DNA of 30,238 nt, taken from Candidatus Zixiibacteriota bacterium (GTDB lineage: Bacteria > Zixibacteria > MSB-5A5 > UBA10806 > 4484-95). The notes under the pieces were generated by a model. That model was not told the origin of the DNA. It saw nothing but the letters and a program-made list of their open reading frames with translations, and searched no databases. A program made the translations under genes and the position numbers. Numbering within the stretch: position 1 is the first letter of the stretch; every line of letters starts with the position of its first letter. Location: assembly GCA_029932605.1 (NCBI GenBank), contig JAOZPT010000006.1:38284-68521 (forward strand), given 5' to 3'. Below, in pieces: positions 2,334 through 28,727 of the stretch.

Positions 2334-3737
2334 GTGCAACAATTAAGCGTTAAAGCCTGTGAATTGAAAAAGAACGACGTTATCAAACTCCAAGTTACAG
2401 ATCTGGCATATGGAGGCAGGGGAGTTGCTGAAGAAGGGGGCAAGGTTGTCTTTGTCGAGAAAGGATTACCAGGCGATATTCTCGATGTGCGCATAAAAAA
2501 GGTTAAACCGGATTATTGTGAAGGTGTAACCGAGAGAATCATTCAACCCTCTCCACATAGATGTGAACCCTTGTGCCAGCATTTCGGCATCTGTGGTGGT
2601 TGCCGGTGGCAAAATTACAATTATAATATGCAATTGAAATTTAAGGCCGATCAGTTAAAGGAGAGTCTTATGCGCATTGGTGGGCTTTCCAACCCGCCGG
2701 TTGAGCCTATCATCGGGGCAAAAAAGATATATTTTTATCGTAACAAGATGGAGTTCTCATTTAATCGAGATAAAAATAACAATAATTTACTGGGTCTACA
2801 CCAAACCGGTTTTTTCGATAGGGTTTTCGACCTCAACAAATGTTATCTGCAATCGGAGTTATCCAACGAAATCGTAAAGTTTGTTAAAGACGAATGCCAT
2901 AGGTTGCATCTTCCGGCATATCATATCCGTAACCACGATGGCCTGATGCGTTTTTTAGTGATAAGAGAAAGCAAATTTGATAGCGGGGTTTTGGTCAACA
3001 TCGTCACCGGCAAGGACTATCATGGATATGAGGACAGTATCGTTGAACTTGGTAAAAACCTCGCAGACAGGTTTAACAGGATAGAAAGTTTGCTCTGGAC
3101 AATTAACAGCAAAAAGGCCAACATTGCCAAATGGGATATGTATCCCGAAAAATTGAAAAATGGTATACTGTATGGACGGGACCATATCTATGAAAAATTG
3201 GGGCGGTATCGTTTTCGGGTTTCTGCAGACAGCTTTTTCCAGACTAACCCATATCAGGCACAGATACTCTATGATACGGTAGTTGATTACGGTCAGCTCT
3301 CCGGACTTGATGATGTTTGTGATTTATATTGCGGGACGGGTACTATATCCGTCTATATTTCTGGATTGGTAAGATCGGTGGTGGGGGTTGAGTCAGTGGC
3401 TCAAGCAGTTTTTGATGCACGGATTAATGCTGAAGAAAATGGTCTTAACAACGTTGATTTTATTGTGGGGAATGTAGAGGATATAATCTTCGAATTAAGG
3501 AAGTTTAATAAGGTTATTCTTGATCCGCCGCGAGCAGGGTTACATCCTAAGGCATTAGAAAAAATCGTTGAAATATCACCTGAGATTGTTGTATATGTTT
3601 CGTGCAACCCAACGACTTTAGCCCGTGATATTGCCGGTTTTATTCAAAATGGGTATAACCTTCAAAGAGCAGTGGCGGTTGATATGTTTCCACACACTTA
3701 TCATATAGAGTCAGTGGTCAAATTGGTACACAGATAA
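2334..3737 (+). CDS. rlmD: 23S rRNA (uracil-C5) methyltransferase RlmD/RumA family
   Basis: N-terminal TRAM domain, CQHFGICGGC Fe-S motif, YRNKMEF, SFFQTN, DLYCGTG, DPPRAGL, YVSCNP, DMFPHTYHIE. True start may be a few codons downstream. Confidence 0.92.
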   Translation: MQQLSVKACELKKNDVIKLQVTDLAYGGRGVAEEGGKVVFVEKGLPGDILDVRIKKVKPDYCEGVTERIIQPSPHRCEPLCQHFGICGGCRWQNYNYNMQLKFKADQLKESLMRIGGLSNPPVEPIIGAKKIYFYRNKMEFSFNRDKNNNNLLGLHQTGFFDRVFDLNKCYLQSELSNEIVKFVKDECHRLHLPAYHIRNHDGLMRFLVIRESKFDSGVLVNIVTGKDYHGYEDSIVELGKNLADRFNRIESLLWTINSKKANIAKWDMYPEKLKNGILYGRDHIYEKLGRYRFRVSADSFFQTNPYQAQILYDTVVDYGQLSGLDDVCDLYCGTGTISVYISGLVRSVVGVESVAQAVFDARINAEENGLNNVDFIVGNVEDIIFELRKFNKVILDPPRAGLHPKALEKIVEISPEIVVYVSCNPTTLARDIAGFIQNGYNLQRAVAVDMFPHTYHIESVVKLVHR

Positions 3738-3767: not shown

Positions 3768-5450
3768 ATGTTTAAAAAATTATTTATAATTCTGGTGATG
3801 GCTAGTTCAGTATATGCTGGTTTGTCTGAAGATATTAGGAGATTAGGTGATGAATATATTGCTTTAAAAAGCAGGTTCTACCCTGTTTGGGCAACAAATA
3901 TGGGAATACATGATTATGACTCATTACTGACAAACTACAGTGGGGATAACGTTTTTAACTACAGGAATGAAATATTGGAGATAAAGCTGAAATTGCAGGA
4001 ACTTGATACAACGAGATTGAAAATCGATGATTATATTGACTATCAGCTTCTTTTGTCCGATATCGATTATGATAATTTTATACTGGGTAAATATCCATAT
4101 TATGAACATTCTCCAGCGCTCCACGTTGAGGAGGCTTTAAACTCCATATATTACTTGATGATAAATCAATCTATGTCTTTTAAGCAGAAAGCACCATTTA
4201 TAATGGCCAGATTGAAAGCTATTCCAACGTTCCTACACCGTGGATTCAGTTATCTTTACCAACCAGTGGATATATTTTATGATACGGCTATAGAAACAGC
4301 TACTGAGGGTGAAACCCTTATCGATGAAGTAACACAGGAACTTTTAAAAATTTATCCGGAGAGAAGCAAGGCAATTGAGCAGTTGAATGTTGTAGTTAAA
4401 AAGAGCTTGAAAAATTATGTGAGATATTGTGAAAGTAAGAAAGAATATGCCTCTGGAACATATGCGATTGGTAAGGATAACCTTAATTTTTTATTGAAAA
4501 GAGTACATTTCATCGACATCGATTCTGATTCGTTAAAAAAGATTGGCCGGTATTGGTATAATGTAGCTAACTCTGCAATGGATTCTCTTCAGCGAATCAT
4601 TGATTCAAAACCAAAGGGGAAAATTAAAAAGCATGCTCCTGCTGATTTTTCTAAAGAGGACATTATGGAATATTATCAGTGGGAGATAAACGAGACGGCT
4701 GATTTTTTCAAAGAAAAGGATGTCGTTACTATTCCTGAAGATATCGGTTCCTGCCTTCCGGTTGAGATGCCGCAATTTATGCGGGCAACTCATCGAGGTA
4801 TTGCCTATCAACCACCGGCACCCTTTGATATTGACCAGACTGGTTATTTCTATGTCCGCCCGATACCACCGCTGGATTCGATTCTAAAAGATGAATATTA
4901 CGATTATATTCAGAACCGGGGTTTTAAAGGTTCGGTCGTTCACGAGGCGTATCCTGGTCATCATCTTCAACTTAGCTTAGCAAACAGACATCCATCCCGC
5001 ATTCGGCGCCTTCAGCAGGATATGGTTATGGCTGAGGGGTGGGCGCTATATTGCGAGCAGATGGCTACTGAACAGGGATTATTTGATGAAGATGACATTG
5101 ACCGTCGCTGGTATGCTGTGTACGGCGGTATCCGTTTCCGGGCGATAAGAGTAATTGTCGATTGTTCGTTGGCTGATGGCACTATGACCCCTGATTCAGC
5201 ATTGGTATTTATGAATAATATGCTTGGAGAAAACACTGATTATTTTACCGCTGAGATTCGCCGATACTGCGCTAATCCAACGACAGCTTTATGCTATTTA
5301 ACAGGGAAGTTGATTATTTTAGATATGTTGAACAAAGCTCGCAGGATTGAAAGCAACTCTTTTTCTTTAAGAAGGTTTCATGACCGTCTCTTGGCCGAGG
5401 GCACAATTTCACCTAATTTAATAGCCTTAAAACTTGGTTATAAAGAATAA
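3768..5450 (+). CDS. DUF885-family exported protein (putative metallopeptidase)
   Basis: Signal peptide MFKKLFIILVMASSVYA. HEAYPGHHLQ, EGWALYCE and FHDRLLAEG motifs. GGAGG RBS. Confidence 0.85.
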   Translation: MFKKLFIILVMASSVYAGLSEDIRRLGDEYIALKSRFYPVWATNMGIHDYDSLLTNYSGDNVFNYRNEILEIKLKLQELDTTRLKIDDYIDYQLLLSDIDYDNFILGKYPYYEHSPALHVEEALNSIYYLMINQSMSFKQKAPFIMARLKAIPTFLHRGFSYLYQPVDIFYDTAIETATEGETLIDEVTQELLKIYPERSKAIEQLNVVVKKSLKNYVRYCESKKEYASGTYAIGKDNLNFLLKRVHFIDIDSDSLKKIGRYWYNVANSAMDSLQRIIDSKPKGKIKKHAPADFSKEDIMEYYQWEINETADFFKEKDVVTIPEDIGSCLPVEMPQFMRATHRGIAYQPPAPFDIDQTGYFYVRPIPPLDSILKDEYYDYIQNRGFKGSVVHEAYPGHHLQLSLANRHPSRIRRLQQDMVMAEGWALYCEQMATEQGLFDEDDIDRRWYAVYGGIRFRAIRVIVDCSLADGTMTPDSALVFMNNMLGENTDYFTAEIRRYCANPTTALCYLTGKLIILDMLNKARRIESNSFSLRRFHDRLLAEGTISPNLIALKLGYKE

Positions 5451-5474
5451 ATAAGTCCCATTTATTGCCGATAA
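5448..5474 (+). promoter_or_regulatory. Sigma28 (FliA/SigD/WhiG)-type promoter
   Basis: Exact TAAA (5448-5451)-N15-GCCGATAA (5467-5474), 19 nt before the ATG at 5494. Confidence 0.65.
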
Positions 5475-5493
5475 TTTTATAAGGTTAGTGTAT

Positions 5494-6600
5494 ATGAAGA
5501 TAATTCATACATCCGATATTCATTTAGGTAAAAAGTTTATCGGGCTCAAACTTGCCGGTGATGGATTAAGAGCGGGTTTGAAGGCGTCATTATCAAGGAT
5601 CGTAGATTACACCCTTGAGCAGAAGGCTGATTTGCTCTTAATTGCCGGCAATCTTTTCGATACACTCGAAGTTTCTAAAAATCTTCAAGATTTTGTTGCC
5701 AACGAATTGGCTAGGCTAAAGGAAATTCCTGCAATTATCCTTCCCGGACAGCACGATTATAATGCCGGTGGCTCTTTCTGGAAAAGTTGGGAGGGCTATC
5801 ATTCACAAGGCAATATATTTGTTTTCAATGGAGAGAAAACATATTACAAATTCGATAAGTTAGATTGCACCGTATATGGATTTCCATATTCAACCGAGGG
5901 TAAGCGTAAAAAGTACTTTATGGAGCCTAATAAAAAGCAGGAAACCAAATTCCATATAGCAATGGTTTGCATAGGGCCTGATGACTTTAACAATCAAGTT
6001 AGGGAAGATAATCCTGATAAGCCCCCAATTGAGGGATTCGATTATGTAGCTATGGGAGGTCAACCTGTATTTATGGATTTATCTTTTCCTGGTTTCAGAG
6101 CGGCCTATAGCGGAGCCCCCGAGCAACTTGATTTCAACCAGAAAGAGGCTGGTTGTATAGCCAGGATCGAGATTGATGAGTCGAATGAAGTCAGGATAGA
6201 AAAAGTTCCTTTCGGTAAGTTTATCTGGCGCACTGAGGAGCTGAAGGCGAAAGATGTTTTAAACAATGATGACCTGATAAGTAAAATTAGGGAGATGGCA
6301 GGTCCTGATTCACTTCTGCGGCTCAAATTTTCTGGACTGGCTTTGTTCGAAGCGGAGGTTGAACCTGAACATGTTCAGAAGTTGATGGAGAAAGAATTTT
6401 TATATCTGGATATTGTTGATGAGATGACGGTACTTCCCGAGAATGTTTTCGAGGTTAAAGTTTCCGAGAAAACGCTTCTTGGGCAGTATATCAAGGTGAT
6501 GGCGGAACAGCTTAGCCGAGCAGACAACAATATAAAGCCGCATCTTGAAAAATCATTAAAAATTGGTTACGCTCTCCTTCAGGGACGGGAGTTGTGGTAA
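5494..6600 (+). CDS. SbcD/Mre11/YhaO-like metallophosphoesterase-fold protein with degenerate active site
   Basis: MKIIHTSDIHLG start, YSGAPEQLDF motif and C-terminal capping domain. Motifs II-V are altered (GNLFD, GQHD, MVCIG, MGGQP). Start placed at ATG 5494 rather than GTG 5488. Confidence 0.85.
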   Translation: MKIIHTSDIHLGKKFIGLKLAGDGLRAGLKASLSRIVDYTLEQKADLLLIAGNLFDTLEVSKNLQDFVANELARLKEIPAIILPGQHDYNAGGSFWKSWEGYHSQGNIFVFNGEKTYYKFDKLDCTVYGFPYSTEGKRKKYFMEPNKKQETKFHIAMVCIGPDDFNNQVREDNPDKPPIEGFDYVAMGGQPVFMDLSFPGFRAAYSGAPEQLDFNQKEAGCIARIEIDESNEVRIEKVPFGKFIWRTEELKAKDVLNNDDLISKIREMAGPDSLLRLKFSGLALFEAEVEPEHVQKLMEKEFLYLDIVDEMTVLPENVFEVKVSEKTLLGQYIKVMAEQLSRADNNIKPHLEKSLKIGYALLQGRELW

Positions 6601-6601
6601 A

Positions 6602-8707
6602 ATGAACCTTACCAGCCTGGTTATTGAAAATTTCGGAAAATTTAAGAGTTTTGAATGTGATTTCACTCCCGGTTTGAATCTTATTAAGGGGGCAAATGAA
6701 ACCGGGAAGTCGACATTGGTCTCAGCCATAGCCATGGCATTATATGGTGAACCGGGGTTTGCACAAGAAGATATCGACAAATCAAAGACCTGGGGAACCG
6801 ATATACCGTTTGTGCTTAAGGCCAGTATTTCTTCCGATGATTTCACTGGAGTTTTAGAAAAGGATTTTAGTTCGGGTCAGACAAAGCTTATAAACCAGGA
6901 ACAAAGCATCTCGGAAAATGATAAAGATAGGATTTTAAAGGTTATAACCGGAGCGATTGGACTACCTACGGCAGAGCTTTTCCGGGCTACCGCATGTATC
7001 GAGCAGGGGGAGATAACTAAAATCGGTGATTCTTTGGAGGCAATAAGAGATAAACTTGAAACGCTTGTCACCGGTGGGCATGAGGATTTGGTTGCATCTG
7101 AAGTAATTGCCAAAATAGATCGTCGCATAGAAGATATAACCCGCAAAGATAAACTCAGAGCAGGATTATTACAAAAACTTGAAGAACAGCAGGCGGATAT
7201 TGATTATAACATTGATAAGTTGGAACGTGAAATTAACAATATAAAATCGTGGAGAAATTCTCTTGCCCAGATCGAGATCGCTTTTGTTAACAGCAGAGAG
7301 GATTATAAAAGCAAAAAACAACAGTTAGAAATTGCCAAAAAAGTTGAAGAAGCACGTTTGGAAATAGAACGGGTTACCCAACAGAATAAAGATATTTCTA
7401 AAAAACTGGAAGAGATAGAAAGCTCTGGCGCGAAAGTCGAGGAACTAAAAAGGGAAATAAATCAGGTTGTTGATATATCAACTGGGGACCGCCAGCAGAT
7501 TGAGGAAACATCGTCTGCATTAAATTATCTCCGACCCAAATTAAGAGACCTGGAGAAAGATGTTGAGGAGGCTAATGAGGAGCTTGACAGTTATAAGTTA
7601 AGCGGTGGTCTTATTGGCTGGATGATTTTATCAGTGGTGTTATTCGGATTTTCAATTGTCGACTATTTGGTGCATTTTACCGGATTCTATTTTCACCTGG
7701 GTGGTTTTGGTTTGATATCGTTTATGTTATCGGCAATGGTTCTGTTGAAAGCTAACCAGAAAAGGGTATTTTTCAAGGAGCAATTGAATATAAAGGGGCA
7801 GAAGAAAAAAGAGGTTGAAAAGGAAATAGAGCAACGGTCTGAAGAGTTGAAAAAACTTCTGGGTAGATACAATATCAGCTCTATTGACCAGATGCATCAG
7901 TCTATCTGGAAACGGAATGAACTGGAAAAACTGCTCAAATCGGAAACTGAACGTTACCAAAGCCTTCTTGATGGTCAGACTGAGGAGCAATTTAAGCAAA
8001 AGTTTAAGGACCTTGAGCGAAAAATAAATAAGAATAAAGCTTTCCTTGAGAAGTGTGCAGGCCAGGTGATTGATACGGCTGAAGTTGAAAGGTTAGAACT
8101 TATTGTGGCTCAGCTTGAGGAGCAAAATAATAACCTAAAAAGTGAAATAAAATCATTAAACCACCAGATAGATACTGCAGAGGGGGGAGTTGAACTTTTA
8201 GCAAGCTATCTTGAGCGCAAGGAAGAAGCTCGAGCAAAAAAAATTAAATTGGTTGAGGAGCTTTCGGTATTAAGCCTTACTAAAAGATGTATCGAGAAAG
8301 CCCGTCAGAATGTGATGATATCCACTCTGGAACTTCTTGAAAGAAGAACCTCTGAAATTTTGGAGATGATAACCGGCGGTAAATATAAAAAGGTCCGTTT
8401 CGACAAATCGACACTGAGATTTGAGGTTTTTGTCGATGATAAAAGGGGTTGGGTCGACCCTCTTAAGGAACTTTCGCGAGGAACGATAGAACAGATATAT
8501 TTAACGGCTCGCCTGGCTTTAACTGAAATTTTGTCTGATAAAGCCCAACCACCAATTATCCTCGATGACCCGTTTAATAATCTTGATGCACAAAGACTTG
8601 AAAACACGATGAAGATGCTTAAACAGATGTCGGAGAACCGTCAGATACTTCTTTTAACATCTGATGATAGCATGGACAGCTGGGCTGATAACATAATCCA
8701 ACTGTAA
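6602..8707 (+). CDS. SbcC/Rad50/YhaN-like SMC-family ATPase with central transmembrane hairpin
   Basis: IENFGKF, Walker A GANETGKST, Q-loop IEQGEI, long coiled coils, signature LSRGT, Walker B/D-loop IILDDPFNNLD. ATG lies 1 nt after the upstream stop. Confidence 0.88.
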   Translation: MNLTSLVIENFGKFKSFECDFTPGLNLIKGANETGKSTLVSAIAMALYGEPGFAQEDIDKSKTWGTDIPFVLKASISSDDFTGVLEKDFSSGQTKLINQEQSISENDKDRILKVITGAIGLPTAELFRATACIEQGEITKIGDSLEAIRDKLETLVTGGHEDLVASEVIAKIDRRIEDITRKDKLRAGLLQKLEEQQADIDYNIDKLEREINNIKSWRNSLAQIEIAFVNSREDYKSKKQQLEIAKKVEEARLEIERVTQQNKDISKKLEEIESSGAKVEELKREINQVVDISTGDRQQIEETSSALNYLRPKLRDLEKDVEEANEELDSYKLSGGLIGWMILSVVLFGFSIVDYLVHFTGFYFHLGGFGLISFMLSAMVLLKANQKRVFFKEQLNIKGQKKKEVEKEIEQRSEELKKLLGRYNISSIDQMHQSIWKRNELEKLLKSETERYQSLLDGQTEEQFKQKFKDLERKINKNKAFLEKCAGQVIDTAEVERLELIVAQLEEQNNNLKSEIKSLNHQIDTAEGGVELLASYLERKEEARAKKIKLVEELSVLSLTKRCIEKARQNVMISTLELLERRTSEILEMITGGKYKKVRFDKSTLRFEVFVDDKRGWVDPLKELSRGTIEQIYLTARLALTEILSDKAQPPIILDDPFNNLDAQRLENTMKMLKQMSENRQILLLTSDDSMDSWADNIIQL

Positions 8708-8764
8708 TCAATATTTGTAGAACAATCATAAACCTTATGTAGGTCGCCTGCAGTATATTCAACG

Positions 8765-8798
8765 GGTAAATGGGTATTTTTTTATTTACCTGGTTTTT
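8765..8798 (+). terminator. Possible intrinsic terminator after the SMC-like gene
   Basis: GGTAAAT (8765-8771)/ATTTACC (8784-8790) stem followed by TGGTTTTT. The stem is AT-rich and weak. Confidence 0.35.
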
Positions 8799-16163: not shown

Positions 16164-17564
16164 TCACCTTACAATCGTGGACGGTTTCAACCTGTTTTCC
16201 CAGTTATAATCCTTAGGTTCTCTTTTAGCTGTTGAATGCACAAGTCTGTAATTACCATAACCTGTCTCATCGATGAAGATGAAATAGACACCCCCTTCTA
16301 ATTCGTTATAGTTCCACCTTATCCAGGGTTTTTCTTCAAGGGATGATGGATAATTTTCCTCATCGGAAGGAGGGCCATAAGTAATATAAACCCTGCCCAT
16401 GTCAGTTTTCCAACCATTACCTTGACCATCCTTTGATTTAAATGTTGAGAAAGCCTCGTTGGCATATCTGAAACGCTGGTAATGTTCGATCTTGTATTCG
16501 TTTATGAGCGTTGAAGGGTTAGTGTCGCGTCTTGCCCAAAACGCTTTGGCGAAATTGTTTTTGCCCTCAATGGATAATTCATCGTACTGCTTCAACTCAT
16601 CACGGGTGCAGATATATAGGATTTGGTTTCTGAAATTTTTTGCCTCTTCTTCGTTAGTGATTTTATCAGCTTCGGGGAAATCGGCAAGTTCCCTTTTCTC
16701 TCTGGCTATTTCCCATTCCAATTTGCCAGGGCTTACCTCGAATATCTTGCTGGTGAAGGTGCTATCATCACCGGAATAAGCATTTACCTGAAGATTATAT
16801 AAACCGACCCTGAAAGCAGATATGTTAATGCCATTTAGAATAATGGCAGGTTTTTCCAAAATAGGCCGGGTTGCAATAGGTATGTTTTTATAAAGGTTAT
16901 TGTTGCTGTCATAAATGCGGATATCAAGAGTGTAATTTTCCATGGAACGGTCAAGGTTATATAACTCTGCATAAAAGTATACAATGGTATCATCATGAGA
17001 AAAGACATTGCGAGTATTGGGGATGATTTTTTTCCCTGCTTTATCAAAGGGGCCACCATCTGCTTCGGTAACGTTATAGGCAAGTTCGATAGTGGATATT
17101 TCCAATTGGTCCTGCGAATATGCGGGAACTACCATCTTGATTTTTCGTTTTCCCGAGGCATTTGAGTTTACATCGGAAACCATGATAGTAAGGTCGTAAT
17201 TACCTGGTATGAGCGACCCTGTGAAGATGTCGTTAATGAGATAGTTGGATTGATTGGCTTCCGTTAGTGATGATGCATGCAAAGCAGCCTGCCAGGATTT
17301 AGAATCGATGAAATCTCCTGTTTCGGATTTTAACTCGACATTTATGTCGGCAAGAGCATAATATCCTGTTGTGTCAGGTAAGAATGAGAATTGATTTCTG
17401 AGAAAGCTGTAATAGATCTCGGTGAAAACATATTCGGTGCTATCGGAATATTTAAAACATGAATAATCGGCAGAAATGAAAAGATTATTAGGTGATTTGG
17501 ATATATCTGCAAGCCCGATGATTGGAAACAAGATAAGTAAACATAATACTAAAATATCCTTCAT
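16164..17564 (-). CDS. GWxTD-domain exported protein
   Basis: Signal peptide, beta-rich N-terminal region, FWARRDTNPSTLINEY, RFRYAN, GWKTDMGRVYITYGPP. ATGA overlap with the upstream paralog. Confidence 0.9.
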   Translation of the reverse strand: MKDILVLCLLILFPIIGLADISKSPNNLFISADYSCFKYSDSTEYVFTEIYYSFLRNQFSFLPDTTGYYALADINVELKSETGDFIDSKSWQAALHASSLTEANQSNYLINDIFTGSLIPGNYDLTIMVSDVNSNASGKRKIKMVVPAYSQDQLEISTIELAYNVTEADGGPFDKAGKKIIPNTRNVFSHDDTIVYFYAELYNLDRSMENYTLDIRIYDSNNNLYKNIPIATRPILEKPAIILNGINISAFRVGLYNLQVNAYSGDDSTFTSKIFEVSPGKLEWEIAREKRELADFPEADKITNEEEAKNFRNQILYICTRDELKQYDELSIEGKNNFAKAFWARRDTNPSTLINEYKIEHYQRFRYANEAFSTFKSKDGQGNGWKTDMGRVYITYGPPSDEENYPSSLEEKPWIRWNYNELEGGVYFIFIDETGYGNYRLVHSTAKREPKDYNWENRLKPSTIVR

Positions 17565-18859
17565 GGTTTTCCTTTCCTGAAATCAATTTGTTTACTTATA
17601 TCGCCGTCATACGGGTATTGTAACGTATATTCGCCGTAACCTTTTTCATCTATAAACAAAAATCTCTGTCGGAGTTTGTAATAATACCAGATTTCATAGG
17701 GTCTAACATCTATATCGAATGGATGACGTTCGATGTCATCAGGTTCACCGTAGATAATATGAATCCTGCCCATATCGGTTTTCCAGCCATCTTTCCCGGG
17801 AAGACTGTAATATTTATTTGAATAAGCGATGCGTCGATAATATTCATCCCTCAATTCATTTTCCTGTGTGCCAGGGCTGGGATCGCGTGATTTCCAGAAT
17901 TCATTCCATAATTGAATTATTTTATCTTTACCCGCATTGCGAAGTTTATCCATTTCCTTTGAATTGGCGATGTATCTTAACTGATCAATGGCTATATCAA
18001 TATCATATTCCACCATTGCCAAGCCAGATAAAGCTATTTTGAAATTACCGCTTGTAGAAACAGTTTTACCCTTCTTAGAAGTTTGATCTTTTATCACTAA
18101 ATTATAATAACCTGGTTTGAGTTTCTCTAAGCTAAGCTTACCAACGAAACCGTTCAGCTTAGTTATTTTACTGCAAACAGTATCCGATGCCACATAATTA
18201 TTTTTGTTGTCTAAAACCTCGAAAATAAAATATGTGGTGTCCCCCACCTGCTTGTCGGAGTAATATTCATAATAATACTTAAGTTCGTTATTGCTATCGC
18301 CATAAATTCTGGAGCATGAAGGAATCACTTTCCAGGGACTTTTATCAAAGACATTAGGTTCACCGGCTTCGGATATTTCACGGGCGAACTCTATTGATGA
18401 AAACATCGGTATTTTTGATTTATAATCAGGTAAAACCAGGTTAGTTTTTAAAGGCAATGATGTGCCAGCATTTGAATCGTTTAAGGTGATCTCTATTTTA
18501 TACTTGCCCGGTTTTAAAAAAAACTTGAACGAGTTTATGAGAAAATCTTCGGGATTTGATGCTTTTTCAAAGGTTTCTTTGTATAAAAATCCTTCAGTTT
18601 CGCTTGCTGTAATCTGCTTTCTACCTTTTTTTATAACGGCGTTTACGCTGTAATTGGCGACATATTTACCATTCTTGCGGATATGTAATAGTTTTGATGT
18701 GTAGATCTGATAATATACTTCCAACTTCACAAGGTCAGTACTATCGGAGGCGAACGAAGCGAAATCCACGTAAAAAGCCGAATTTTGTGTCCCCTGGAAT
18801 GACCAGGTTGGAATGGATAAAACTAATATAGTTATTATGCTCATTATCCTGTTTAACAA
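17561..18859 (-). CDS. GWxTD-domain exported protein
   Basis: Signal peptide, FWKSRDPSPGTQENE, YYRRIAYSN, GWKTDMGRIHIIYGEP, EIWYY. TTG start behind GGGAGA. Confidence 0.9.
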   Translation of the reverse strand: MLNRIMSIITILVLSIPTWSFQGTQNSAFYVDFASFASDSTDLVKLEVYYQIYTSKLLHIRKNGKYVANYSVNAVIKKGRKQITASETEGFLYKETFEKASNPEDFLINSFKFFLKPGKYKIEITLNDSNAGTSLPLKTNLVLPDYKSKIPMFSSIEFAREISEAGEPNVFDKSPWKVIPSCSRIYGDSNNELKYYYEYYSDKQVGDTTYFIFEVLDNKNNYVASDTVCSKITKLNGFVGKLSLEKLKPGYYNLVIKDQTSKKGKTVSTSGNFKIALSGLAMVEYDIDIAIDQLRYIANSKEMDKLRNAGKDKIIQLWNEFWKSRDPSPGTQENELRDEYYRRIAYSNKYYSLPGKDGWKTDMGRIHIIYGEPDDIERHPFDIDVRPYEIWYYYKLRQRFLFIDEKGYGEYTLQYPYDGDISKQIDFRKGKP

Positions 18860-26153: not shown

Positions 26154-26885
26154 TTATTTTAACTTGAATTCGATTTTGTAGGCAACCCAGACAGCTACTG
26201 GTTGGCCATTGGATATGGCTGGTTTCCAGAGTGTCTTTTTGGCAGCTTCGATTGCTGCTTCCTCAAAACCGGCTTTTGCTCCAGAATCTTTTACGATAAT
26301 GACATCCCGAACCTTGCCCTCTTTATCGACGAGAGCTTTAACCCAAACAACGCCCTCGATACTTGCACGTCGAGCCATTTCCGGGTAAACGGGCTGAACA
26401 ACTTCAATTTGTTGGGGAGGTTCTTCATAAGCCACGAATTCATCCGGTGTAGGTAGAAGTTCATCGAGGTCTTCGATTATGATTTCTTTATCGCCCACTT
26501 CATCAATATCGGTGATTGGTGGTGGTGCGGCCATTGATGCGAGTTCGTCCATGGTGGCGTATTCAACATCCTCTGGTGCCTCCTCATCGGGTACGGGAGT
26601 GGGAACTCCGACCGATGGCAGGGCTCTTTCTGGAGCAACAACCCTTACCGGGATATCTTTAGCGGATAGAGTGGGTGGCGTACCGAGTTCTGCTGCTGTT
26701 TTTAAAACTATGGTTCCAGCAGTCTCAGGTGGTTTTGCTGATAGTTTACTGACAAAAACAATACTGCCGATTACAATAAGATGAAAAGCACAGGCTACTA
26801 ATATGCCAATCGCCATGTTTTTTCGATAGACCCGTTTGAGCTCAAAGTTGCCATAACCGGCCAGAATGGAAGGTACTTTATTCAT
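26154..26885 (-). CDS. tonB: TonB-family energy transducer
   Basis: YGNFELKRVY, TM helix with His (ACAFH), Pro/acidic linker, C-terminal PVYPEMARRASIEGVV..WKPA..GQPV. Start set at ATG 26885, overlapping the exbD stop. Confidence 0.9.
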   Translation of the reverse strand: MNKVPSILAGYGNFELKRVYRKNMAIGILVACAFHLIVIGSIVFVSKLSAKPPETAGTIVLKTAAELGTPPTLSAKDIPVRVVAPERALPSVGVPTPVPDEEAPEDVEYATMDELASMAAPPPITDIDEVGDKEIIIEDLDELLPTPDEFVAYEEPPQQIEVVQPVYPEMARRASIEGVVWVKALVDKEGKVRDVIIVKDSGAKAGFEEAAIEAAKKTLWKPAISNGQPVAVWVAYKIEFKLK

Positions 26886-27510
26886 TATTTTCCCCTTGCT
26901 TAGCTGGGACCATTCCCATGGCCTCTTTGGCTTTCTCAATTAATTGAAACTCCCAGAGAGTCATATCCTGAAGACTGAACCTGTAAGACCATTCAGGGTC
27001 TGCCGCATATCTTACTCCCTTGAATTCAAACCCTGATTTGAAATTTTTTTCTACCACCTGAATTTCATCAATGATATCCACCATCATTTCATACTTGCAG
27101 GCTTTATCGATCCTTAGCACTGTTACCAACTTAGGTACATCAAGATTTTTCTGAGTAAGGAAATCCCGCAGATTTTTAAGTTCAATATATTCTGGCAATT
27201 TCATATCGGGTTGTCCCTTGGGAGTGTGCATCCAGAATATGTTACCTTCGGCATCAACAAGTATCTCTAAAAGTTTAGATTTGGCTACCGGAATTGGGGG
27301 CGCTTCCCCTTCTTTTGGTTTTGGAGGAAGATTGATCTCCATTGATTGAGGCATTGAAAAAATCGTTGTCACCATATAGAATATCAAAAGTAGAAAAGCG
27401 ATATCAACCATTGGAGTCATATCAATCCTGATACCAATACGTCTCTTGGGTCGCTTTAAACCGCCTTTTTTAGCTTTAACTTCTCTTTGTGGTTGGTCAA
27501 CAACTCCCAT
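26878..27510 (-). CDS. exbD: ExbD/TolR-family protein
   Basis: IDMTPMVDIAFLLLIFYM TM motif with the conserved Asp. AGGAGGT RBS. Has a C-terminal extension. Confidence 0.9.
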   Translation of the reverse strand: MGVVDQPQREVKAKKGGLKRPKRRIGIRIDMTPMVDIAFLLLIFYMVTTIFSMPQSMEINLPPKPKEGEAPPIPVAKSKLLEILVDAEGNIFWMHTPKGQPDMKLPEYIELKNLRDFLTQKNLDVPKLVTVLRIDKACKYEMMVDIIDEIQVVEKNFKSGFEFKGVRYAADPEWSYRFSLQDMTLWEFQLIEKAKEAMGMVPAKQGENNE

Positions 27511-27525
27511 TTGGTATCACCTCCT

Positions 27526-27996
27526 TTATAGTGACGGCTCTTTTGGTTCATCGACTTTAAGTTCCGTCATCATTGAAAAATGGTCTATACCGACATCCTG
27601 AAGGGTGCTCATGATATCTTTCATTGTCCCGTATTTACTATCGCGGTCAGCTTTTACTATTATTATTGGATTACCCAACCTGACTCTGGCTTTAGTTAAC
27701 TCGAAGTTGAGGGTGCGAAGCGTGACCTCAGGAGACTCTCTAATTATATCACCAGTTTTTTTATCTTTGGTGATGTATTCAACGAATATTTCGTTTTGTT
27801 TGTTAACAGTGATACTAATCAGACCCGCATCGGGAACTTTGATTTCTGAATGAGAGGAGGGCAGGGTTACATGTTCTTTTTCAGGTGGTTTGAACTGGGT
27901 GGTGGTCATATAGAAAATCAAAAGCAGAAAGGCAATATCGACCATAGGAGTCATATCGATAGAGATGCCAATTCTCCTTTTTGGTCTTTTAGCCAT
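27526..27996 (-). CDS. exbD: ExbD/TolR-family protein
   Basis: IDMTPMVDIAFLLLIFYM, LPSS, IKAD-like VKADRDSKYG. TAATG coupling with exbB. Confidence 0.92.
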   Translation of the reverse strand: MAKRPKRRIGISIDMTPMVDIAFLLLIFYMTTTQFKPPEKEHVTLPSSHSEIKVPDAGLISITVNKQNEIFVEYITKDKKTGDIIRESPEVTLRTLNFELTKARVRLGNPIIIVKADRDSKYGTMKDIMSTLQDVGIDHFSMMTELKVDEPKEPSL

Positions 27997-28727
27997 TAAC
28001 AACCTTCTTTCTTTTTGATTAACTGTATCACCTCGTAGGATGCCTCATCGATTGTGAAGTTGAAAGTATCAACTTTGTTGACGAACACATTATATGCCAC
28101 GATACCCACGATAGCGTTAGCCAGTCCTCCAGCAGTGTTAACCAACGCTTCGGATATACCGATAGCCAATTGCTGAGCATCGATAACACCGCCTTTGCGG
28201 TGACCGGTTGCGGCAAAGGCTCTGATCATTCCGATTGTTGTTCCCAGCAATCCCCACATGGTGGCGATTGAGGCGATAGTTGAAAGGGCGATTAAGTTTC
28301 TTTCTAAAAGTGGCACCTCTAAAGCATTGGCTTCATCAATAGCGCGCTGAGTTTCTTCAACCTTCTTTTCGGAGGTCAATGAGGAATCATCCTTGACAGC
28401 ATTATATCGTTCTATCCCGGCTCTGAGAATATTGGCGACACTGCCACGTTGTTTATCACAAGCAGCTATGGCACCTTCGTAGTCACTGCTATTGAGCATA
28501 GTTATGACCTTTTTGAAGAAAGATTGCACAGAGGCTTTACCACGGGCGACACGCAACGTTAACCAGCGCTCGATAATAAAACCAATCAGAAGGATCATCA
28601 TGGCAATTAAGCCTGCTACAAGAGGACCGCCTTCGCGAAGATAATCTGGAAGTAAATACGCCCAGATGATATACCCCGTGGCAATTGCTACAATCAACAA
28701 CACGAAGAAAAATACAGACTGTTTCAC
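27996..28727 (-). CDS. exbB: ExbB/TolQ/MotA proton-channel protein
   Basis: LSTIASIATMWGLLGTTIGMIRAF and GISEALVNTAGGL. GTG start behind AGGAGG. Confidence 0.92.
   Translation of the reverse strand: MKQSVFFFVLLIVAIATGYIIWAYLLPDYLREGGPLVAGLIAMMILLIGFIIERWLTLRVARGKASVQSFFKKVITMLNSSDYEGAIAACDKQRGSVANILRAGIERYNAVKDDSSLTSEKKVEETQRAIDEANALEVPLLERNLIALSTIASIATMWGLLGTTIGMIRAFAATGHRKGGVIDAQQLAIGISEALVNTAGGLANAIVGIVAYNVFVNKVDTFNFTIDEASYEVIQLIKKKEGC

Follow-up and report, generated by a model that had tools for sequence, protein, structure and literature searches.

A predicted membrane-anchored SbcE/SbcF-type complex with a degenerate nuclease site behind a conserved FliA-type promoter in Zixibacteria

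Introduction

In Bacillus subtilis, the sbcD-like gene for SbcF (YhaO) lies directly 5′ of the gene for SbcE (YhaN), an SMC-like ATPase. The available part of the report on these proteins presents SbcF as the predicted nuclease partner of SbcE, with a role in repair and competence, and describes the central domain of SbcE as hydrophobic, insoluble and devoid of a CxxC motif; in that part SbcE is not termed transmembrane (PMC2811018). Here we analyze a related gene pair in a stretch of 30,238 nucleotides (the window; G000:C10:38284-68521) from a Candidatus Zixiibacteriota bacterium whose genome is designated G000. The first open reading frame of the pair (ORF1) encodes an Mre11-fold protein stripped of most residues of the nuclease site, and the second (ORF2) encodes a Rad50-fold ATPase with a predicted transmembrane hairpin. 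As judged from gene order, ATPase head family and central domain, the pair descends from the SbcE/SbcF kind.

The likeness to SbcE/SbcF includes the order of the genes, the PF13514 AAA_27 head, the hydrophobic central domain and the absence of a CxxC hook; it is drawn from the published description, since B. subtilis YhaN itself lies outside our alignment. The two systems differ in that the ATPase here has ~700 amino acids as against 106 kDa for SbcE, and that no yhaM gene lies downstream, where a MatE gene stands here and HIT/aconitase-like genes stand in relatives. In addition, the phosphoesterase site is lost (three of eight residues are kept here, and one to three in the taxonomic order of G000, hereafter the order), and the pair is preceded by a FliA-type promoter.

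SbcCD/Mre11-Rad50 complexes, as described in the accessible part of a study of their architecture, share with the pair the Mre11 nuclease fold, the capping domain, the helix-loop-helix by which Mre11 binds Rad50, the Rad50-type head and the antiparallel coil (PMC7260605). In contrast to these complexes, the pair has neither the five-motif two-manganese site nor the CxxC zinc hook, its Walker B motif ends in DD, and it scores under every NCBIfam cut-off for SbcC, SbcD, Rad50 and Mre11. A further relative is the Lamassu system (LmuB/LmuC), which, according to the part of the source available, is an SbcCD derivative in which the nuclease of SbcD was lost while the part that binds SbcC was retained (PMC12663957). 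LmuB is the best PADLOC hit of the ORF2 ATPase (E 7e-22), and PADLOC returned no match for the nuclease-fold protein or for the product of the upstream DUF885 gene. Unlike Lamassu, the pair retains the whole nuclease fold, and its neighbourhoods contain no LmuA effector or LmuC. A defence system was ruled out by the fixed housekeeping neighbourhood, the near-universal presence of the pair in the order and the absence of an effector gene.

The Mre11-fold subunit

ORF1 and ORF2 are both open on the + strand and separated by one base (Table 1), as an earlier note on this DNA had described when it reported two coupled, uninterrupted reading frames. The ORF1 product matches the calcineurin-like phosphoesterase family PF00149 (E 3e-13) and, under their cut-offs, the SbcD/Mre11 models. 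Its AlphaFold model (predicted local distance difference test, pLDDT, 86) ranks Mre11/SbcD first in both structure searches and aligns with Pyrococcus furiosus Mre11 over 280 residues (Z 25.6; root-mean-square deviation 3.4). Eight canonical site residues (D8, H10, D53, N86, H87, H159, H189 and H191 in ORF1 numbering) were placed by profile alignment to Thermotoga maritima Mre11 and by alignment to an intact relative. Three of them, D8, H10 and H87, are retained, and the other five are replaced (N53, Q86, C159, G189 and P191). The same note's claim of a degenerate metallophosphoesterase site therefore stands. This sequence evidence places the pair among SbcF/SbcE (YhaO/YhaN)-type complexes and predicts that its Mre11-fold protein has lost the cutting site.

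We searched 41 genomes (designated by G numbers) for the pair, 24 of them from the order. The nuclease-fold gene was matched in 37 and the ATPase gene in 39, and both counts include all 24 genomes of the order. Residues were counted over the 23 complete order members, as the G007 copy ends at a contig end. Close homologs do not keep the canonical ligands: each of the 23 holds one to three of the eight site residues, and all 23 lack the motif IV and V histidines H159, H189 and H191. Replacements vary freely, and none of the remaining residues is conserved order-wide (D8 in 9, H10 in 7, D53 in 14 and H87 in 2). G52, F55, P84, G85 and D88 are conserved across groups, and the basic helix K24/R26/K30 is retained in ORF1.

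Outside the order the site is largely intact. Pairs from other phyla hold six or seven of the eight residues in 16 of 16 cases, motif III asparagine being often threonine across the family, and in a set of 22 pairs from outside Zixibacteria that include a nuclease gene, every site looks intact. In Clostridia, where 35 of 300 genomes were matched, the site is intact in 28 of the 30 best loci. Ten Zixibacteria outside the order have seven or eight site residues, a group picked by the intact site itself, and four further ones are degenerate (G025, G032, G026 and G035). Close homologs of both proteins bear the name candidate division Zixibacteria in their sources; a few homologs titled Ignavibacteria fall in the same clade as these proteins. 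Gut Clostridia also contain a separate, Eubacterium-like clade of degenerate YhaO-like proteins (P0093, P0103, P0109, P0114; L256, L259); a search of the 1.5 kb downstream in G198 and G278 found no Walker A motif of an ATPase.

Relaxed selection was not seen. Pairwise ratios of nonsynonymous to synonymous substitution rates (dN/dS), estimable for 13 of 17 pairs, are 0.09–0.19 in 12 degenerate nuclease pairs, which indicates purifying selection in the order; one intact nuclease pair gives 0.13, and the ATPase 0.06–0.18. In the two trees built, both quick trees, the order forms one clade (support 100), and the degenerate copy of G025 is placed among intact copies. On the ATPase tree (quick tree, 26 rows), the hypothesis that all degenerate copies form one clade is rejected (approximately unbiased test, p-AU 3e-58). 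These two results together argue that cutting was lost more than once within Zixibacteria while the fold was kept.

The ATPase subunit and the predicted complex

The ORF2 product matches PF13514 AAA_27, which we take to be the Pfam family of YhaN, with 40.9 bits against a cut-off of 22, and also matches SMC_N. PF13514 is listed on proteins that their source names YhaN, and close relatives of ORF2 carry that name. The model of ORF2 (pLDDT 86; predicted template-modelling score 0.54) has a Rad50-type head and an antiparallel coil, and where the coil turns it predicts two hydrophobic helices connected by a short loop. This hairpin corresponds to hydrophobic 19-mers that begin at residues 335 and 364 of ORF2, which contains no CxxC hook.

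The earlier note had singled out a transmembrane hairpin at mid-protein as part of a candidate undescribed module. The hairpin is indeed predicted here, but it proves to be an ancestral trait of SbcE/YhaN proteins that also occurs beside intact nucleases. Of 120 family representatives of 600–760 amino acids, 117 have a central hydrophobic segment and 87 have two. Such a segment also occurs in 27 of 28 Zixibacteria ATPases, in intact-site pairs of other phyla and in source-named YhaN proteins, and the hairpin was therefore set aside as a novelty. Relatives of ~800 amino acids with neither hydrophobic hairpin nor CxxC represent a third, apparently beta-rich kind of coil apex (P0240, P0287, P0296, P0299, P0302, P0321, P0327, P0342, P0347 and P0356).

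The Walker A residues listed in Table 1 are invariant in 19 order members, as is the Q-loop glutamine. Two departures from canonical motifs were ruled out as clade-specific decay. The DD of Walker B occurs in 108 of 120 family members, and the H-loop histidine is variable, being found in 2 of 20 ATPases of the degenerate clade, in 6 of the 9 from intact Zixibacteria and in 4 of the 15 from the outgroup.

A complex of the two subunits through the helix-loop-helix is weakly predicted, with a score of 0.47 against 0.00 for the best control. The mark for this score was reached by 116 of 157 solved pairs and by 2 of 215 mismatched pairs; 18 of the mark-reaching solved pairs (of 157) and both mismatches scored 0.60 or less. 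At least 84% of contacts are shared between runs, and the partner pLDDT is at least 70. The score may reflect likeness to solved Mre11-Rad50 complexes.

The upstream promoter

The consensus recognized by sigma28/FliA is TAAA-N15-GCCGATAA. An exact match upstream of the pair had been reported in the earlier note, and we confirm it (Table 1): the window contains one match against 0.01 expected, and the site is conserved with the pair. The TAA of its TAAA is the stop codon of the DUF885 gene. Genome-wide, G000 holds three exact matches against ~1.8 expected, other spacer lengths giving 0–5, and the count was discarded as evidence. Occurrence of TGCCGATA before ATG starts (10 of 227) barely exceeds that of control words, and an inverted repeat inside the promoter, considered as an operator or hairpin, is not significant (z -0.5). 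Because a single exact match proves little, the reality of the promoter rests on conservation.

In 27 of 28 relatives, CCGATA occurs no more than 80 nucleotides upstream of the start, as against 106 of 2773 control windows (3.8%) and 64 of the 1977 upstream regions of G000; in the lone exception, G004, it lies 150 nucleotides further upstream. A T-x-A box in the -35 region stands at a fixed distance in 25 of the 27 sites, as against 9–10% of all CCGATA. The conserved form in relatives is TNAA-N15-GCCGATA, in which the boxes are fixed and identity within the spacer is just 0.29, and the boxes hold also where DUF885 is not the upstream neighbour. In a set of pairs from outside the order, the promoter precedes all 11 from Zixibacteria, 10 of them site-intact, and no FliA-type site was found upstream of the 22 pairs from other phyla. 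Since the boxes are fixed and the spacer is free at 30–55% protein identity, among kin that are not independent, the conserved site is best read as a selected sigma28/FliA-type promoter, presumably recognized by FliA rather than by another sigma factor. Intact-site relatives carry the promoter, so its capture likely preceded loss of the nuclease.

In a genome-wide weight-matrix scan, the promoter of the pair ranks second among upstream sites, the matrix having been trained partly on the orthologs of this promoter; at a score of at least 16, there are 27 upstream and 50 intragenic hits. As the matrix is noisy and partly trained on orthologs, only targets checked by conservation were counted as members of the FliA regulon.

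A predicted FliA regulon in Zixibacteria

The fliA gene of G000 lies within the flagellar cluster, and its product scores 276 bits against a cut-off of 189.6. The remaining two exact matches lie upstream of motA and of an unknown gene. In all 30 genomes compared, a bipartite FliA-type site stands before the pilT with the best score (CCGATA in 8, TCGATA or ACGATA in the rest; L320-L349); the number of PilT-family genes per Zixibacteria genome is 2–4. The link with motility that the earlier note had drawn from the sigma28 promoter is strengthened by these sites and by the position of fliA. The unknown gene and its neighbour (L070:458-1827, G000:C53) encode coupled proteins of 210 and 245 amino acids that have no Pfam match and weakly resemble the roadblock/LC7 fold. 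They sit behind the best FliA-type site of G000, a site conserved in 25 of 30 genomes, and in G037 and G028 they are the convergent neighbour of the nuclease-ATPase pair. Among control genes, a FliA-type site precedes dprA in 1 of 30 genomes (CCGATA only) and comEA in 3 of 27, three 740-residue non-ComEA matches being excluded. Motif variants in G000 stand before genes read as flgM, flgN and flgL from position and sequence; candidate further targets in this genome include putative pilA, pilB, pilM, pilU, flgM and flgN.

FliA scores above the family cut-off in all but one of the 41 genomes, and flagellin was found in 30 of them. Genomes without flagellin keep a FliA that is ~70% identical to that of G000, and five of them (G014, G022, G023, G029 and G032) retain the pair and its promoter. 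FlhA gave no match in five flagellin-less genomes that are 86–99% complete.

Several observations accompany this regulon. The fliA regions of flagellin-less genomes (L350-L355 from G022, G014, G029, G032, G024 and G040; L069) hold remnants of a flagellar cluster, such as CsrA-like, FliW-like and response-regulator genes named by sequence likeness. Where flagella genes were not found, sigma28 appears as an orphan with a pilus-centred regulon; pattern scans of three flagellin-less genomes covered 30 of 55, 15 of 70 and 15 of 54 matches. The flagellin gene of G000 (G000:C10:22850-23035) has a divergent, GTCGAAAT-like site rather than the consensus. Just upstream of the window, a single-domain response regulator (G000:C10:36888-37271; L245) has a FliA-type site that is also present in G023, and a near-identical site sequence occurs in G014 and G022 among the matches listed.

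The accessible part of a study of Bdellovibrio bacteriovorus reports a FliA consensus nearly identical to that given above and an attack-phase FliA regulon with TTAAG-N16-CCGATA-type promoters, genes well beyond flagella and mapped transcript starts (PMC3627812). The Zixibacteria resemble Bdellovibrio in having FliA-type sites far beyond flagellar genes. They differ in that the sites here are inferred from conservation and that we see no sign that Zixibacteria are predators.

Discussion

We consider it highly probable that the pair forms a nuclease-dead, membrane-anchored complex within the FliA regulon. Whether this complex acts at the inner membrane as a non-cutting clamp for DNA, during a motile phase with flagella and type IV pili, is a more specific reading to which we give about an even chance. 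In this model, FliA would transcribe the pair in the motile phase. Two ATPases of an M2R2 complex would be anchored in the inner membrane by the predicted hairpins that replace the zinc hook, their heads reaching ~20–25 nm into the cytoplasm (140–170 coil residues at 0.15 nm each), and a dimer of the pseudo-nuclease would bridge the heads through the helix-loop-helix, as in Mre11-Rad50. The thing held would be DNA, either the chromosome or free ends. The promoter would have been captured first, and a cutting activity that was no longer needed would then have been lost repeatedly. DNA is proposed as the substrate because of the ancestry of the pair, the kept K24/R26/K30 helix, the tethering role described for Mre11-Rad50 in the accessible part of its source (PMC7260605) and the polar location of B. 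subtilis SbcE in competent cells, where, in the part of the report available, it was proposed to protect incoming DNA (PMC2811018).

Several observations weigh against a DNA-holding clamp of the motile phase. The promoter also precedes intact-site pairs, so it does not by itself explain site loss, and the degenerate pairs of G026 and G035 have no CCGATA in the 110 nucleotides upstream; the co-occurrence of ligand loss, hairpin and promoter is thus not strict. Read-through from rlmD may also supply transcription of the pair. No link to DNA uptake was found: there is no conserved FliA-type site directly before dprA, comEA or comEC, most of which are operon-internal. The dN/dS of the window's own copy can be compared only at saturated dS. 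The ATPase gene is interrupted in G022, where it is in two pieces, and in G007, where it has one internal TAG (L066, L047); the break in G022 is possibly an assembly error, because rlmD is split there too. The signature glycine is present in only 10 of 20 degenerate-clade ATPases, the window copy included, compared with all 9 from intact Zixibacteria and 11 of the 15 from the outgroup. Because Walker A and the Q-loop are invariant and this glycine is half lost, ORF2 likely binds ATP, and turnover may be slow or absent. Finally, the N-terminal 200 residues of the ATPase have become acidic in the degenerate clade, with a mean net charge of -9.8 (n=20) as against -3.1 in intact Zixibacteria (n=9) and -0.6 in other phyla (n=15). 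This acidic head disfavours strong DNA binding, with the caution that the samples come from one clade and are not independent.

For the same reason, a role as protein scaffold follows closely behind DNA holding. The complex may, as a tentative possibility, have left DNA altogether and become a membrane-anchored coiled-coil scaffold or nucleotide switch, under the same FliA control, that organizes proteins of the motile pole through new surfaces of the pseudo-nuclease. Candidate clients are pilus motors and roadblock-type polarity proteins, given the co-regulation with pilT and the roadblock-like pair and the adjacency of that pair in two genomes. Besides acidification of the head, the degenerate clade has lost a basic patch at residues 48–66 and has newly fixed residues in the nuclease (F95, W96, W99, N63 and W368) and in the coil (R175, N203, Q223, N230, D234 and W436). 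A precedent is provided by the B-subunits of eukaryotic DNA polymerases, in which, according to the available part of the source, a calcineurin-like domain with inactivated motifs was kept as a scaffold (PMC4996933); these subunits belong to another lineage, have another partner and align with the ORF1 model at a Z of only ~12. However, the newly fixed residues may simply have been inherited from the common ancestor of the clade, net charge describes a binding surface only roughly (surfaces were judged from sequence alone), the basic helix of ORF1 is retained, and no partner gene is stably linked to the pair across the neighbourhoods examined.

It is improbable that the pair is a recombination or competence helper like SbcE/SbcF of B. 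subtilis, acting before RecA with no need to cut, and that the FliA promoter merely adds expression in motile cells to read-through from rlmD. AddAB-type enzymes resect DNA, and G000 encodes an AddA/B-type nuclease as well as ComEC, ComEA and DprA. The SbcD-family match is the sole one in 21 of the 22 order genomes that have any; rlmD is a conserved upstream neighbour, and a consensus scan found no terminator-like site between the DUF885 gene and the pair. Such a helper would also keep the family function known from the accessible account of B. subtilis (PMC2811018). But an auxiliary promoter is not expected to stay fixed class-wide while upstream neighbours change, and pairs without the promoter nearly always have an intact site, as in the other phyla and the best Clostridia loci counted above.

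It is very unlikely that the Mre11-fold protein remains a hydrolase, whether through an altered or single-metal site or with a small nucleotide as substrate: the window copy does keep D8, H10 and H87, and G52, F55, P84, G85 and D88 are shared across groups, but none of the site residues is conserved order-wide, and their substitutes differ freely between members. It is hardly credible that the two genes are decaying pseudogenes and the promoter a chance match. The interrupted ATPase genes and the lack of genome-wide enrichment of the exact motif might speak for this reading, but it is largely refuted by the presence of the pair in all 24 order genomes searched, a dN/dS far below 1 and the conserved promoter.

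The clamp model and the scaffold model share the nuclease-dead core, and what appears new is its order-wide nuclease loss under purifying selection behind a conserved FliA-type promoter; the hairpin, being family-wide, is known. A literature search covering few subscription journals and no supplements turned up neither a nuclease-dead SbcF nor a transmembrane SbcE, nor any account of a FliA regulon in Zixibacteria. The Zixibacteria offer a natural case of separation of function, as sister lineages with the same promoter and hairpin have an intact or a dead nuclease, so that cutting can be told apart from holding. The little-studied SbcE/YhaN family is predicted to be membrane-anchored, which would put the polar, insoluble character of SbcE in B. 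subtilis in a new light; if so, SbcE/YhaN proteins in general would be integral membrane SMC-like ATPases. The conserved regulon of pili, roadblock-like proteins and the nuclease-ATPase pair, exposed here in an uncultured phylum, gives a first hint of a two-phase life cycle in Zixibacteria. It is tempting to speculate, with less than even confidence, that FliA is a phylum-wide regulator of the motile phase that has outlasted flagella, and that the Rad50-Mre11-type machine it captured then lost its nuclease several times independently and became a non-enzymatic chromosome-membrane tether or pole organizer. If true, this role would be undescribed for any SMC-like complex.

Genomic setting

G000 is a genome of 2.53 Mb that is 99.96% complete. 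On the + strand, the genes around the pair run in the order phasin-like, ABC1 kinase, rlmD-type methyltransferase, DUF885, ORF1, ORF2 and MatE.

Table 1 Features of the nuclease-ATPase locus, in positions of the window
Feature	Position	Strand	Remarks
SbcF/YhaO-like Mre11-fold pseudo-nuclease (ORF1)	5494-6600	+	368 amino acids, ATG start; nuclease-fold domain, capping domain, C-terminal helix-loop-helix
Motif I D8-x-H10	5515-5523	+	Kept in window copy; D8 in 9/23, H10 in 7/23 order members
Degenerate motifs II-V	5650-6066	+	N53 (for D), Q86 (for N/T), C159, G189, P191 (for three His)
Clade-conserved F95-W96-x-x-W99	5776-5790	+	Within ORF1
Helix-loop-helix, predicted Rad50-binding element	6475-6579	+	Among best-conserved parts of the protein in the order
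SbcE/YhaN-like Rad50-fold ATPase (ORF2)	6602-8707	+	701 amino acids; PF13514 AAA_27 above cut-off
Walker A GANETGKST	6689-6715	+	G30, N32, E33, G35, K36, T38 invariant in 19 order members
Predicted transmembrane hairpin at coiled-coil apex, replacing zinc hook	7607-7753	+	~Residues 336-384
Signature LSRGT, Walker B ending DD, H-loop TSDD without His	8471-8668	+	DD family-wide
Sigma28/FliA-type promoter	5448-5474	+	TAAA 5448-5451, 15-nucleotide spacer, GCCGATAA 5467-5474; 19 nucleotides 5′ of ATG
rlmD-type methyltransferase	2334-3737	+	Upstream context, not part of module; conserved neighbour
DUF885 gene	3768-5450	+	Upstream context, not part of module; variable neighbour
Terminator-like stem-loop 3′ of ATPase gene	8763-8792	+	Consensus match only

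In most relatives (9 loci, e.g. L121:9739-12319), the pair is followed by a HIT gene and genes for the large and small subunits of an aconitase-family enzyme, the large subunit having an extra N-terminal region of ~170 amino acids; in G000, the HIT/aconitase-type genes are located elsewhere and not beside the pair. The window also contains the phasin-like gene and ABC1 kinase (22-2136), as well as two tandem GWxTD-domain genes and a TonB-ExbD-ExbD-ExbB cluster (16164-18859 and 26154-28727), all of which are ordinary for the group as far as checked.

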